Shown piece after piece: positions 1,443 through 7,438 of a DNA stretch of 7,864 nt (the first letter of the stretch is position 1; each line of letters opens with the position of its first letter). Where the stretch lies: the IMG/VR virus record IMGVR_UViG_2541047722_000016; one strand, written 5' to 3'. The position numbers and the translations under genes were made by a program. The DNA is from a virus (Duplodnaviria; Heunggongvirae; Uroviricota; Caudoviricetes). The notes under the pieces were generated by a model, which was not told the DNA's origin, did no database searches, and saw only the letters and a list, made by a program, of their open reading frames with translations.

Positions 1443-2093
1443 ATGAAAACTCAATTGATGGGAGAGCGCATTCGCGCTCGGAGAAAAGAACTCAAGATCA
1501 GGCAGGCCGCACTTGGAAAGATGGTCGGCGTGTCTAATGTTGCCATATCTCAGTGGGAACGCTCTGAGACAGAGCCAAATGGAGAGAATCTTCTCGCCCT
1601 GGCTAATGCGTTGAAGTGTTCCCCTGACTATCTGATGAAAGGAGAGGAAAGTCTTTCAAACATTGCCTATCACAGTAGGCATGATCCAAGAGGGTCATAC
1701 CCTCTGATTAGCTGGGTGAGCGCAGGATGCTGGATGGAAGCTGTAGAACCATATCATAAGCGTGCAATAGATAACTGGTACGATACAACCGTAGACTGTT
1801 CAGAAGATTCGTTTTGGTTGGACGTGAAGGGAGACTCAATGACGGCTCCGGCCGGTCTCAGTATCCCTGAAGGAATGATAATACTCGTCGATCCTGAAGT
1901 AGAGCCGCGTAACGGGAAACTGGTAGTTGCAAAGCTCGAAGGAGAAAACGAGGCAACTTTCAAGAAGTTAGTTATTGATGCAGGCAGGAAGTTTCTAAAA
2001 CCACTTAACCCACAATATCCGATGATCGAGATCAACGGAAACTGCAAAATCATCGGCGTAGTTGTCGATGCAAAACTAGCAAACCTTCCATAA
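1443..2093 (+). CDS. c2: CI-type immunity repressor (P22 c2-type): N-terminal HTH domain plus C-terminal LexA/S24-like autocleavage domain
   Basis: 216-aa track ORF MKTQLMGERIRARRKELKIRQAALGKMVGVSNVAISQWERSE..., with the C-terminal DVKGDSM...GK motif of S24 peptidases. No SD precedes the ATG. Closely matches P22 C2 as I recall it. Confidence 0.93.
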   Translation: MKTQLMGERIRARRKELKIRQAALGKMVGVSNVAISQWERSETEPNGENLLALANALKCSPDYLMKGEESLSNIAYHSRHDPRGSYPLISWVSAGCWMEAVEPYHKRAIDNWYDTTVDCSEDSFWLDVKGDSMTAPAGLSIPEGMIILVDPEVEPRNGKLVVAKLEGENEATFKKLVIDAGRKFLKPLNPQYPMIEINGNCKIIGVVVDAKLANLP

Positions 2094-2119
2094 GGGGGCA
2101 TTCGCCCCTTTTTTTTTAT
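2094..2119 (+). terminator. Intrinsic terminator immediately after c2
   Basis: GGGGC-ATTC-GCCCC hairpin (2095-2108) followed by a run of nine T. Confidence 0.7.
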
Positions 2120-2160
2120 TTCCTTTAAAAATCAAAGCCAAACTTAAGTTACGAAAGAAA

Positions 2161-2213
2161 ATTTAAGTTTTCTTCAAAAATGCTCTTGACCATTAATTAA
2201 AGAGATCTTAAAT
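2161..2213. promoter_or_regulatory. OL/PL: PL promoter with overlapping P22-type operators
   Basis: -35 TTGACC (2186-2191), 16-nt spacer, -10 TTAAAT (2208-2213), reading rightward. Operator ATTAAAGAGATCTTAAAT (2196-2213) overlaps the spacer and -10; a second, weaker operator ATTTAAGTTTTCTTCAAA is at 2161-2178. Confidence 0.6.
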
Positions 2214-2259
2214 TTAAGCCATCAGCAGGACGCTGGAAGCCAAACGGAACAGATTGGCA

Positions 2260-2301
2260 GGCTCTTTAACATTGATGGGATTGTCCCGCCGAAATGCGGG
2301 A
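2260..2301 (+). promoter_or_regulatory. nutL-like site: boxA plus boxB hairpin
   Basis: GGCTCTTTAACATT (2260-2273), then TCCCGC-CGAAAT-GCGGGA (2284-2301), identical to the nutR boxB, about 60-80 nt downstream of the PL -10. Confidence 0.6.
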
Positions 2302-2614
2302 ACCAAAGAGTAGTTGGCTTTGGGGTGACGTGAAGTGCAGCTGCACGACGGCAACCGGAAGATAAGCACCCGGCGCGTCACCGCCAAAGTCAATTCCATA
2401 GGCGTTATGCAGCCGCCACCATATTCAAGAAAGCTGCACAAGAGGTAGGAGGATTTATGTGAATGCATAACTTCAAAACCGAGGTTAATTAAATCTCTCG
2501 ATCCGAGCATCGACCTATTAGGTGGCGAGATGCTCTTTCTGCCCCTCAGTTCGAGGGGCCAGAAACCACTTTGCAATCACTATCAATTCCAAAGTTGTTT
2601 CATCGGAGGTCAAC

Positions 2615-2913
2615 ATGACAGTAGTCATTACATATCTGGCTGACGATAACGCCAGAAATCGCCGCAGAGCACGCAGACAGGCTCAACGTGAACAGGCGAT
2701 GCAAGACAGCGACTGGCGCGAAAAATTGCGCTAAAGCTCTCTGGTTGCGTCAGAGCGGATAAAGCAGCATCACTCGGAATCCTTCGCTGCAAGAAGGCAG
2801 ATGAAGTCGAGAGTAAACAGAATCGTATTTACTACCGCAAGCCACGCAGTGAAATGGGTGTGACTTGTGTTGGTCGCCAGAAAATGAAATTAGGCAGCAA
2901 ACCACTTATTTGA
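2615..2913 (+). pseudogene. N: N-like antitermination protein, split by a 1-nt frameshift
   Basis: ATG at 2615 with GGAGG 7 nt upstream. Frame A gives MTVVITYLADDNARNRRRARRQAQREQAMQDSDWREKLR and stops at 2732-2734; it carries an arginine-rich motif. The frame one nucleotide behind is open from 2692 and ends ...NRIYYRKPRSEMGVTCVGRQKMKLGSKPLI at the TGA 2911-2913, matching the lambda N C-terminus as I recall it. Both frames are open across the A5 run at 2721-2725. Confidence 0.6.
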
Positions 2914-2921
2914 GGTGATAT

Positions 2922-3392
2922 ATGACAAAATCATGGAGCGTACCTTTTCCTGAATCAGAAACTGAACATGATGGAATGCCTGTTTTCTGGAGATTCCAAG
3001 CGACAGTTGAAGAAGATGGAATCAAAATATTCGCACTTCAATATATAGCTTTTCATCAGACAGAGCATTATGCATGGTTGGTTCCTGCGCATTGGATTGT
3101 TAATTTTAAACCAGCACCAAATCAGTGGTTACAGGAATGGAAACAAAGGAGAAATAGATATGCAATTAAGAAAGTAGCAAAAAATGCAGAAAGATCTTTT
3201 GCATTCCCGACGAAGAAACTTGCCATTGAAAGTTTATTGCGCCGGAAGAAATACCATTTGATGAGAATCAAACAAGATTTGGCTGTTGTATCAACTCTTG
3301 TTGATGGGATGAAGAATATTGATACATCAACACCAGGTATTGAATATAACTTTGGACACAACCAAGAAACAGAAAACTGGGTGTTTTATTAG
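2922..3392 (+). CDS. Hypothetical protein, 156 aa, AT-rich gene in the N-to-cIII interval
   Basis: Track ORF with GAGGTGA 6 nt upstream of the ATG. It starts 8 nt after the N stop. Visibly more AT-rich than the flanks (about 40% GC in a hand-counted sample). Acidic N-terminal half, K/R-rich C-terminal half, no obvious transmembrane segment, no family recognised. Confidence 0.7.
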   Translation: MTKSWSVPFPESETEHDGMPVFWRFQATVEEDGIKIFALQYIAFHQTEHYAWLVPAHWIVNFKPAPNQWLQEWKQRRNRYAIKKVAKNAERSFAFPTKKLAIESLLRRKKYHLMRIKQDLAVVSTLVDGMKNIDTSTPGIEYNFGHNQETENWVFY

Positions 3393-3406
3393 TACGAATA
3401 AGCACT

Positions 3407-3434
3407 GTGTATTCATTCCAACGAGTGAATACAC
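3407..3434. repeat. Perfect 9-bp inverted repeat with a 10-bp spacer
   Basis: GTGTATTCA (3407-3415), 10 nt, TGAATACAC (3426-3434). No T-tract follows. Confidence 0.5.
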
Positions 3435-3496
3435 GGAGCAATGTCGCTCGTAACTAAACAGGAGCCGACTTGTTCTGATTATTGGAAATCTTCTTT

Positions 3497-3520
3497 GCCC
3501 TCCAGTGTGAGGGCTTTTTT
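3497..3520 (+). terminator. Intrinsic terminator downstream of the AT-rich gene
   Basis: GCCCTC-CAGTGT-GAGGGC hairpin (3497-3514) followed by TTTTTT (3515-3520). Confidence 0.7.
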
Positions 3521-3586
3521 ATATGCATACCAATAACGCTTCACTCGAGGCGTTTTCGTTATGCAATCAAACAGAAGGAGCATCCT

Positions 3587-3757
3587 ATGCAACAGTTCGC
3601 TATTGCAGGGGCGGCATCGGTTCGCCCTTTCAACCCGATTTTATCGGTACAGCATTCACGAAAAAACATTTTAACCGGAGCAGACTTTAAACAACCAAGA
3701 ATGAAAAGCTTGCTCGAAAAGCTTTGGGATATTTTGAAACAACAAGGCCGTCCATGA
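3587..3757 (+). CDS. cIII: CIII-like small protein (56 aa)
   Basis: Internal ATG of track ORF 3482..3757, with AGGAG 7 nt upstream. The N-terminus MQQFAIAG and the C-terminal SLLEKLWDILKQQGRP resemble lambda CIII as I recall it. Its position matches cIII on the lambda map. Confidence 0.45.
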   Translation: MQQFAIAGAASVRPFNPILSVQHSRKNILTGADFKQPRMKSLLEKLWDILKQQGRP

Positions 3758-3912
3758 GTTTTACGGATAACTGGTCAGACGAAGAATTCATTCGTCAGAT
3801 AAAAGAATTAATCGGTAACGAAGGAGATATTCATGTCACTTGCAACCACAGTGAAGGAGAGCAAGTTACAGAGACGCATGTACACGCAGAAAGCTCTCTG
3901 GTATCGCCATAA
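3754..3912 (+). CDS. Hypothetical small protein (52 aa) in the kil position
   Basis: ATG at 3754 overlaps the cIII-like stop (ATGA). Product MSFTDNWSDEEFIRQIKELIGNEGDIHVTCNHSEGEQVTETHVHAESSLVSP. No family recognised. Confidence 0.4.
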   Translation: MSFTDNWSDEEFIRQIKELIGNEGDIHVTCNHSEGEQVTETHVHAESSLVSP

Positions 3913-4013
3913 TGGTGACCGCGAAGGAATGCGGGTATGCCTTAATTTGTCCCGAGTCGAAGTATTAAATCAGCGTTATTTCCTTGGGCCGTGTCCATTC
4001 TGAGAGCAATCAT

Positions 4014-5322: not shown

Positions 5323-5416
5323 GGAATTTACCATGAGAGGACTTGCTTAAGAGAAAGAGTTTCGGTTCTGTTAATGACAACAAATATCTGAATGCGATGT
5401 GGCGGAGTGGGAAGAA

Positions 5417-5935
5417 ATGAAACAAATGTCACTAATTGAGATGGATGGTTTTCTGAAAGGTAAATGCATCCCAAGTGATTTAAAGGTTAACGAAACAAAC
5501 GCTGAATACCTTGTCCGTAAGTTCGGTGAACTTGAATCAAAACTGGAAACGGCGTTGCGGGAGTGTAGTTCTGCTGGAATCACGATTGATAACCTTGAGG
5601 CTAAATGCGCGAAGATGGCTGCTGAAAATACCTCACTTAAGCAATCTGAGAAGGAATTTAATGACTTTTGTCGTGAGGAGTTTAGCGAATGGGAAGATGA
5701 TGTTACTGAAACCCCAGCCACCGATGCTTTTCTGGCTGAAGTGCGGGCGCAGGGGGTGGATGCTGCTATAGAAGCTGCAAAAAATCTGGTGGCCCAAGAA
5801 TATGAGTATAAGGATTTCAAAGCGGCGCAGAGTGATTGCTGTATGCACCCTGGTTCAGACCTGGTAGGGAAGGTTGAAATGACTGAGTGGTTAGTTGACT
5901 TTGCTGCCCAGCTTCGCAAAGGAGGCAACCAGTGA
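5417..5935 (+). CDS. Hypothetical coiled-coil protein in the ea region (172 aa)
   Basis: ATG at 5417 inside track ORF 5399..5935 (which opens at a GTG), with GGAG about 11 nt upstream. The central part is E/K/A-rich and predicted coiled coil. Confidence 0.5.
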   Translation: MKQMSLIEMDGFLKGKCIPSDLKVNETNAEYLVRKFGELESKLETALRECSSAGITIDNLEAKCAKMAAENTSLKQSEKEFNDFCREEFSEWEDDVTETPATDAFLAEVRAQGVDAAIEAAKNLVAQEYEYKDFKAAQSDCCMHPGSDLVGKVEMTEWLVDFAAQLRKGGNQ

Positions 5936-6231
5936 CTGTATGTCTTATTGATAAACGTCGACGTGGGCAACAAATACCATCTGTTGAAATGCCGAATCAC
6001 ACATGGTTTTGCGTACTTGATATCGATGGTATGGATACGTTGGTTGACACTCGTCATTACTGCGATACCGCAACAGCTACTCCGGCGAAAGCAAAGAAAA
6101 TGGCTGCTCTGATAGAAAACTGGACTCCACCTGATGGTTGGTGCAATGGGAATGATCGAGATTGGCACGAAAAAATGAAGGGCTATATCTGCGATTTTTT
6201 ACGTAAATGCAACGGCTTCAGGGGGATGTGA
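5932..6231 (+). CDS. Hypothetical protein (99 aa), GTG start
   Basis: GTG at 5932 with GGAGG 6 nt upstream; it overlaps the preceding stop (GTGA). Several Cys residues; no family recognised. Confidence 0.5.
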   Translation: MTVCLIDKRRRGQQIPSVEMPNHTWFCVLDIDGMDTLVDTRHYCDTATATPAKAKKMAALIENWTPPDGWCNGNDRDWHEKMKGYICDFLRKCNGFRGM

Positions 6232-6232
6232 T

Positions 6233-6805
6233 ATGACCAAAATTAACTATCAGGCACTGCGTGAGGCGGCAGAACGTGCAATTCCGGCAATGGAACGCCT
6301 GTTAATGTTGCCAGTTGATGATGATTTGTTAAGTGAACAGGAACTTAAGGATTACGGTGTGGATATTGATGCGCTCAACGCCTTCAAATTTCTGACCGGA
6401 CCAGAAACCGTGCTGGCGCTGCTGGATGAACGGGAAAGAAACCAGCAATACATCAAACGCCGCGACCAGGAGAACGAGGAAATTGCGCTAACGGTAGGGA
6501 AGCTGCGCGTTGAGCTGGAAGCTGCAGAGAAGCGCATTGCAGAACTGGAAGCCGAACCTGTAAGCCAAACTTACAAGTTGAACGAGCTGTCGGGCAACTA
6601 TCCGGTAACTCCGGATGGTTGGATAAGCTGTAGTGAGCGAATGCCCGCTCAAGATGATTGGATTTTAATTTATTCAAAGCACGGCGAGTATATGGCAGGA
6701 CAGGTACAAGGGGAATACGTGGAGTTGAGCGACGGCACTTTATCGTGGTTAGGGAACGCCTTGTACTGGATGCCTCTACCGGAACCGCCGCAGGAGGTTA
6801 ATTGA
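6233..6805 (+). CDS. ead/Ea22-like protein with a DUF551-like C-terminal domain
   Basis: ATG 1 nt after the preceding stop. The N-terminus MTKINYQALREAAERA is typical of Ea22-like proteins as I recall them; a central coiled coil is followed by a C-terminal ...DGWISCSERMP...WMPLPEPP. Confidence 0.6.
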   Translation: MTKINYQALREAAERAIPAMERLLMLPVDDDLLSEQELKDYGVDIDALNAFKFLTGPETVLALLDERERNQQYIKRRDQENEEIALTVGKLRVELEAAEKRIAELEAEPVSQTYKLNELSGNYPVTPDGWISCSERMPAQDDWILIYSKHGEYMAGQVQGEYVELSDGTLSWLGNALYWMPLPEPPQEVN

Positions 6806-7089
6806 TGGTCTCCTTCGCGAAATATACGATTATTGACTGGATAGCATTCATTCAGGTTTTGCTCATCTGGTTTTATATGGCTTACAGGAGTGGACAGTGG
6901 ATTGTCAGTGTAGCCTGTAGCAATGGATGGCGTTGGTGGAACCGAAAGAATAAAAAAGCGCTGGCCTTGGCTTCGTTTTACGAAGCATTCAATCTTAACA
7001 GTCTTCAGCCTGGTTTTGTCGTTGTAGTCACCACTCAAAGCGGCATGACGATACAAATTCACAAGCCAAAGGAGGAAGGTCGTGGCTAA
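6805..7089 (+). CDS. Small putative membrane protein (94 aa)
   Basis: ATG at 6805 overlaps the preceding stop (TGATG), with GGAGG 8 nt upstream. One hydrophobic segment (IIDWIAFIQVLLIWFYMAY) near the N-terminus. Confidence 0.5.
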   Translation: MVSFAKYTIIDWIAFIQVLLIWFYMAYRSGQWIVSVACSNGWRWWNRKNKKALALASFYEAFNLNSLQPGFVVVVTTQSGMTIQIHKPKEEGRG

Positions 7090-7366
7090 CCTGCAACTTG
7101 CCGTTAAAGGTGAATACTTCGATGCCATGATTCGCGGAGAGAAAACGGAAGAGTATCGCCTGTGTAATGACTACTGGAATAAGCGAATTATGTTCCGCGA
7201 GTATGACCGCCTGATTATCACAAAGGGATATCCGAAGCGCGACGATTCCAGCCGCAGAATTGACGTCCCGTATGACGGATATGAAATCAAGACAATCACA
7301 CATCCGCACTTCGGCGATAAACCGGTAAAGGTGTTCGCTATAAAGGTGAATATCGACAATGAATGA
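7082..7366 (+). CDS. ASCH (PUA-like) domain protein, GTG start
   Basis: GTG at 7082 with GGAGG 6 nt upstream; overlaps the preceding gene by 8 nt. The product contains GEKTEEYR, fitting the ASCH G-x-K-x-x-E-x-R motif. Confidence 0.5.
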   Translation: MANLQLAVKGEYFDAMIRGEKTEEYRLCNDYWNKRIMFREYDRLIITKGYPKRDDSSRRIDVPYDGYEIKTITHPHFGDKPVKVFAIKVNIDNE

Positions 7367-7438
7367 TAATCCTCGCACTCGCGGGGATTTCTTTTATCTG
7401 AACTCGCTACGGCGGGTTTTGTTTTATGGAGATGATAA

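Follow-up and report, generated by a model that had tools for sequence, protein, structure and literature searches.

The gene between N and cIII of an Escherichia coli lambdoid prophage is HK97 gp45, an early-left cassette gene shared with Shiga-toxin phages

We analysed a stretch of 7,864 nucleotides (hereafter the window), which comes from a lambdoid prophage of extra-intestinal E. coli and covers its immunity and early-left region. The AT-rich gene that lies in it between N and cIII is the gene annotated as gp45 in phage HK97 and p19 in phage 933W, a member of PHROG 1636. The gene is genuine and strongly constrained by purifying selection, and our confidence in its anatomy and identity is high. 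Our reading of what it does is tentative: the product of this single-gene early-left cassette may be cytoplasmic, bind nucleic acid or another polyanion, and modulate the host or counter its defences.

Results

The open reading frame and its setting

On the + strand, the window carries cI, the cI terminator, a PL-like promoter, a nutL-like site, N, the target open reading frame (ORF), non-coding DNA that contains two hairpins and a terminator, and a cIII-like gene (Table 1). An Erf-type recombination module follows 3' of the cIII-like gene, and cro and cII are on the opposite strand. We take the nut site to be nutL-like from the lambda nut consensus, and the cIII-like gene to be cIII from its resemblance to lambda cIII; the region just upstream of the latter matches the lambda sequence immediately before cIII.

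Table 1. Features of the early-left region, in positions of the window
Feature	Position	Strand	Description
cI	1443-2093	+	cI terminator 2094-2118 downstream
PL-like promoter	2186-2214	+	TTGACC, 17 nt, TAAATT; just past the cI stop and cI terminator
nutL-like site	2262-2300	+	boxA GCTCTTTAACA; boxB hairpin CCCGC-CGAAAT-GCGGG; read from sequence
N antiterminator gene	2615-2913	+	arginine-rich motif NARNRRRARRQAQ; frameshifted
Left linker	2863-2921	+	last ~17 codons of lambda-type N plus Shine-Dalgarno
Target gene (gp45)	2922-3392	+	156 aa, ATG start, 18.6 kDa, pI 9.3
Boundary element, non-coding	3402-3522	+	lambda 33921-34046, between ral and ea10
Hairpin 1	3407-3434	+	inverted repeat GTGTATTCA / TGAATACAC, 9 bp
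Intrinsic terminator	3497-3520	+	GCCCTC-CAGTGT-GAGGGC followed by T6; 6-bp GC stem
Second terminator-like hairpin	3535-3560	+	weaker; upstream of cIII
cIII-like gene	3588-3758	+	MQQFAIAG...SLLEKLWDILKQQG; next PL gene

A sequence-only reading of this DNA had described the gene as a 156-aa ORF with a good Shine-Dalgarno, starting 8 nt past the N stop, richer in AT than its surroundings and followed by a 9-bp inverted repeat and an intrinsic terminator; its product was described as acidic in the N-terminal half, basic in the C-terminal half and devoid of a membrane segment. Each of these observations was reproduced. The Shine-Dalgarno GAGGTG (2912-2917) overlaps the N stop codon TGA (2911-2913), with 8 nt between stop and ATG, and both the repeat and the terminator are present downstream. 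The GC content of the gene is 36.7% (45.5% for the whole window), and its GC3 is 29.3%, against 40-56% in nine other ORFs of the window. The pI of the protein is 5.1 over residues 1-60 and 10.3-11.1 over residues 61-130, and the last 26 residues are acidic again. No membrane segment was detected, the highest 19-residue Kyte-Doolittle mean being 0.56.

The window is 100% identical to the corresponding DNA of strains FY26 and NCTC11151. Relative to strain ATCC 11775, it shows one substitution and two indels of a single base each, the second indel lying near window position 6953. In the ATCC 11775 prophage, PGAP annotates three pseudogenes (L003 6580-8333, approximately window 5340-7090): a DUF2737 fragment, a truncated Ea22-like gene and a frameshifted DUF4752 gene. 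The prophage adjoins torI and dsdC. When the whole window was searched against Rfam, the only match was RsmY at 7259-7390, inside or beside an ASCH-domain gene; with 19.7 bits against a gathering score of 57 (E 0.19), this match lies far below the gathering score and is most likely due to chance.

The ORF is HK97 gp45 and encodes a constrained protein

The target protein matched PHROG 1636 over its full length (E 1.1e-111, residues 1-156 against profile positions 1-156 of 156). At the amino-acid level it is 98.7% identical to HK97 gp45 and 99.4% identical to 933W ST933Wp19 (NP_049479), to phi24B vb_24B_11c and to the BP-4795, Min27 and Stx2-86 proteins, which are placed after N; H-19B carries a copy that is 98.7% identical and unannotated. 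The flanks match in HK97 and 933W as well, where the gene also follows N and precedes the same terminator. With 98-99% identity over 156 residues and the same position, we found no substantive difference between the target and the HK97, 933W or phi24B genes, and we refer to it as gp45 below.

The gene had been put forward as the best candidate for an undescribed function, and this stands in part. As a sequence, gp45 has long been catalogued, the ORF having been annotated for years (as gp45 in HK97 and as a hypothetical protein in 933W); only its function is undescribed. All sources that list family members give them as hypothetical and without a name, and our search of the literature found no paper or experiment on gp45 function. 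The statement that no family could be recognised also held. The target protein matched no characterised family in Pfam, NCBIfam or the PDB sequences, its PHROG matches were all to families of unknown function, and searches of Pfam, NCBIfam and PHROG revealed no homology to ral, sieB or gene 17. PADLOC 2.0 returned only Cas1_II, at chance level (E 0.018, 12 bits). A Pfam search with 52 family members and six further hits likewise yielded no domain, except for repeat-domain matches in the spurious hit P0059. We considered whether the larger hits P0059 and P0080 are domain fusions and rejected this, as both are repeat or low-complexity artefacts.

gp45 is encoded in 83 phage records. Among 5426 complete E. 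coli genomes, the full module is present in 563 (~10%) and a part of it in 2240. Across the 27 alleles found in 81 viral contigs, the variable codons comprise 20 synonymous and only 2 non-synonymous ones, showing that the protein is constrained. Orthologues that are 55-84% identical occur in Pectobacterium, Brenneria, Cronobacter and Rosenbergiella, with 40 invariant alignment columns. An exhaustive profile search extended the family to 87 cluster representatives at E <=1e-3 (clusters at 50% identity), mostly of 130-160 aa; a genome scan for related loci returned only 7 loci.

gp45 is predicted to be expressed from PL together with N

A consensus scan detected no sigma-70-like site between PL and the gp45 ATG, which leaves the PL-like promoter as the sole such site upstream of the gene; the scan is a simple one, and a weak or non-sigma-70 promoter in 2735-2921 would be outside its reach. 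We also found no terminator on the + strand between PL and 3497, the intrinsic terminator at 3497-3520 being the first one downstream of PL on that strand (scan of 2100-4000). Because there is no promoter-like site after PL and no terminator before the gene, gp45 should be co-transcribed with N. Judged from this anatomy, gp45 should therefore be an immediate-early PL gene: it would be carried on the same transcript as N, would not require N antitermination, would be translated from its own Shine-Dalgarno and would remain silent for as long as cI represses PL.

In the window, the upstream N gene is disrupted by a -1 frameshift, which the sequence-only reading had overlooked. One A is lost near 2706 (GCAAGA-CAGCG here; GCAAGAACAGCG in ATCC 11775), so that the first frame ends after 39 codons, at 2734. 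An intact N of 99 aa is found in ATCC 11775 and in the functional phage 611R6; the 611R6 record annotates it as 'antitermination protein N', and the gp45 gene of that phage starts 8 nt after N. Several other genomes carry a frameshifted N allele that is 100% identical to that of the window. We considered a programmed frameshift and rejected it, since the ORF of the relatives is intact with one more A. If the frameshift is genuine, PL transcription in this prophage is expected to end at 3520, with gp45 as the sole intact product. The prophage appears to be decaying and, given this together with the damaged N, gp45 may not be usefully expressed here.

A strong GC hairpin (2541-2559, GCCCCTCAGTTCGAGGGGC) also lies in the long N leader, about 55 nt before N starts. 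It has no T-run and is reminiscent of the lambda N-leader hairpin that is sensitive to RNase III.

gp45 is a cassette between two conserved linkers

The gene had been credited with its own terminator, and this proved incorrect: the inverted repeat and the terminator belong to a lambdoid element of about 120 nt that is present in 327 phage records, whatever the upstream gene. This non-coding boundary element is 96-100% identical across the 327 records (98% to lambda) and is far better conserved than the genes that flank it. Sf6 annotates it as 'bsq4; boundary sequence', and a terminator is annotated at the matching stretch in HK97 (as putative), HK620, HK106 and Sf6. The element is predicted to fold as RNA into three or four hairpins (folding z = -5.05 against shuffles), and in hairpin 1 a loop of 4 nt would cap a 12-bp stem that includes one G-U pair; Rfam holds no family that matches it. 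Besides the terminator, the element contains two conserved hairpins that are not terminators, at 3407-3434 and 3435-3476.

With 98% identity to lambda 33923-34045 and a terminator annotated in its relatives, the element is the counterpart of the lambda tL2 region and of Sf6 bsq4; its hairpin followed by T6 predicts termination. The name tL2 we take to come from Luk and Szybalski (1983). The surroundings differ: the lambda element follows ral and precedes ea10, whereas here it follows gp45 and directly precedes the cIII leader. This junction is seen when window 3525-3610 is aligned with lambda 33443-33522, the boundary element being joined directly to the cIII leader. The ssb-like gene ea10, which separates the element from cIII in lambda and 933W, is absent here and in HK97.

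On the other side of the gene, alignment showed that the left linker is identical in HK97 and 933W, save for one base in the intergenic spacer. In those two phages N ends before the linker, which is therefore non-coding. The window instead has a lambda-type N allele that reads into the linker in frame, its frameshift lying further upstream. The remnant of N that is thus retained upstream of gp45 in HK97 and 933W (VTCVGRQKMKLGSKPLI, then stop; window 2863-2921, L001 2505-2562, L002 2443-2500) is either the relic of a recombination joint or the carrier of an unrecognised signal.

The edges of homology among 80 viral contigs cluster at ~2860 and ~3520, and homology among carriers of the gene begins ~59 nt before the ATG. 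Together with the conserved flanks, this clustering identifies the gene as a cassette held between two conserved linkers. Such an arrangement agrees with the idea, cited in PMC3029335, that modules are exchanged by way of short conserved boundary sequences.

The partners of the cassette vary: it is found with lambda-type or H-19B-type N, with Erf or Red modules, and with or without ea10. The content of the slot varies as well. In lambda it holds sieB, ral and ea10; in H-19B, gene 17 is annotated in the interval, which also contains the unannotated gp45 copy; and in phi296, ral is found together with the gp45 gene. Only 83 of the 327 records with the boundary element carry the gene, the other 244 having no protein match to it, and the N-to-cIII interval is thus a site of variable cargo, as had been suggested.

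A predicted fold with a conserved basic surface

A first AlphaFold2 model computed from 22 close sequences was poor (pLDDT 64) and was superseded by a run on a 52-sequence alignment, which gave a pLDDT of 95.5 and a pTM of 0.81. The predicted fold is alpha/beta, in which a long three-stranded meander is followed by a short helix, then by a fourth strand and an amphipathic helix of 33 residues (strands 19-30, 33-46, 50-55 and 83-86; helices 66-74 and 98-130). The model has no relative in the PDB and matched none of the known DNA- or RNA-binding folds.

In BFVD, 12 matches were obtained at E <1e-3; those with a name are called 'Uncharacterized protein' and the others have none. These relatives come from phages of Erwinia, Achromobacter, Delftia, Rhizobium, Sinorhizobium, Tenacibaculum and Cellulophaga hosts and include Achromobacter phiAxp-3, Delftia RG-2014 and Erwinia phiEa2809, all three of which we take to be virulent phages.

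About ten positions are basic in 60-100% of the family (R24, K75/76, K83, K84, K87, R91/92, K98, R108, K109 and K117). In the model, the basic positions lie on strand 4 and on the exposed face of the long helix, away from its hydrophobic stripe. The conservation of charge is what suggests that gp45 could bind nucleic acid, and our confidence in this is low.

Homologues lie at different positions in the early region

Family members are co-directional with the early genes throughout, and their positions differ. In Pectobacterium and Brenneria the homologues are immediately upstream of xis-int, in Rosenbergiella the homologue comes before recT, and in a Vibrio phage it is beside a recT or recE module. 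Salmonella phage NX263 carries a 64%-identical homologue as the first gene of a small operon, and its annotation contains neither an integrase nor a repressor. As no partner is constant, gp45 probably works alone. A role in the lysogeny decision was also considered and was rejected because of the homologue in NX263.

Discussion

Taken as a whole, gp45 is an ordinary catalogued lambdoid accessory gene, in a known variable slot and before a known shared terminator, and there is nothing surprising in this. In our favoured reading, gp45 would be a soluble basic protein that binds nucleic acid or another polyanionic target and, working by itself at an early stage of infection or induction, modulates the host or blunts a host defence. 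This mechanistic step is the weaker part of the reading, and we regard it as somewhat doubtful. The job would be of the same kind as that of Ral, with which gp45 shares the slot. Like gp45, lambda Ral, which acts in restriction alleviation, is small and soluble and is the product of a PL-transcribed accessory gene between N and a tL2-type boundary, and by analogy it could serve as a model for an early counter-defence gene in this position. In contrast to gp45, Ral has 66 aa, and the two showed no sequence similarity in the Pfam and PHROG searches.

The gene had also been proposed as a defence function, that is, a moron expressed by the lysogen that protects the host from other phages or excludes superinfection. 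Several features are in keeping with this: the gene is AT-rich compared with its neighbours, it is variable cargo in the slot where lambda has sieB, it occurs in many prophages (~10% of E. coli genomes), and it is intact here where N and several other prophage genes are damaged. We nevertheless disfavour this explanation and consider it very unlikely, because no promoter-like site was found between PL and the gene, which belongs to the PL operon upstream of the first terminator, and because PADLOC gave no match. The terminator is shared, and the gene is on the PL strand and would by design be repressed by cI. To our knowledge, Sie proteins have a membrane or signal segment, and gp45 has neither. 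A close homologue is found in NX263, which has no annotated integrase, and structural relatives are found in Achromobacter, Delftia and Erwinia phages. As a weak negative, gp45 is not among the six phage proteins that the phi24B lysogen study reports from 2D-PAGE (PMC3342100).

Lambda and P22 SieB and P22 gene 17 are alternative cargo of the same interval and are not homologous to gp45. SieB resides in the membrane and has a prophage promoter of its own, whereas gp45 has no hydrophobic segment and no detectable promoter. With the morons of Juhala and Hendrix, gp45 shares the character of a single extra gene of deviating base composition that is present in some relatives and absent from others. 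It differs in that the defining trait, a promoter of its own, was not found in the consensus scan, and in that its terminator is shared. Hence gp45 behaves as a cassette embedded in an operon and not as an autonomous moron. Since the cassette is without regulatory signals of its own, it should be treated first as an early lytic gene and not as a prophage defence gene.

It is also conceivable, and we judge it unlikely, that gp45 binds phage nucleic acid as an internal factor of DNA or RNA transactions, helping in early transcription, recombination, excision or replication. The conserved basic surface would suit such a role, as would the inferred expression at the very start of the early programme and the genes found next to it: N here, xis-int in Pectobacterium and Brenneria, and a recT or recE module in Rosenbergiella and the Vibrio phage. 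Yet none of these neighbours is constant, the gene being found with both Erf and Red modules and with different types of N, and the model matched no known DNA-binding fold. Moreover, about three quarters of the related lambdoid phages lack the gene and develop without gp45, which makes it dispensable for core functions. That the ORF is a decaying or functionless hitch-hiker is scarcely credible, even though the host prophage is degraded and the highly conserved linker DNA on both sides could have carried it along: the excess of synonymous over non-synonymous codons (20 against 2), full-length orthologues of 55-70% identity in other genera with 40 invariant residues, a wider family of ~87 clusters at 50% identity and a confidently predicted fold all speak against it.

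Returning to gp45 as an early host-modulating or counter-defence protein, a bolder and rather unlikely extension is that it is the founding characterised member of a phage-specific fold family of immediate-early effectors, directed against host defence or reprogramming a host nucleic-acid process. Such effectors would bind DNA, RNA or a polyanion-binding host protein, and the family would span lambdoid phages, NX263 and phages of Achromobacter, Delftia, Erwinia and Bacteroidota hosts.

On the expression proposed above, gp45 would be part of the first transcript made by 933W, H-19B, phi24B, HK97 and many E. coli prophages on induction or infection. Should it prove to be a factor of counter-defence or host takeover, it would have consequences for the host range and spread of Shiga-toxin phages, and a counter-defence would have gone unrecognised in the major phages of this group and in ~10% of E. 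coli genomes; if it is neither, it simply adds to the conserved phage ORFs of unknown function.

As a minor observation, the distant family members of Pseudomonas phage Medea1 and Pantoea phage Nafs113 are preceded, a few genes upstream, by DNA methyltransferase genes (L097 86-4426; L098 2411-3926). This proximity, seen in two genomes only, is a possible hint at an anti-restriction neighbourhood.
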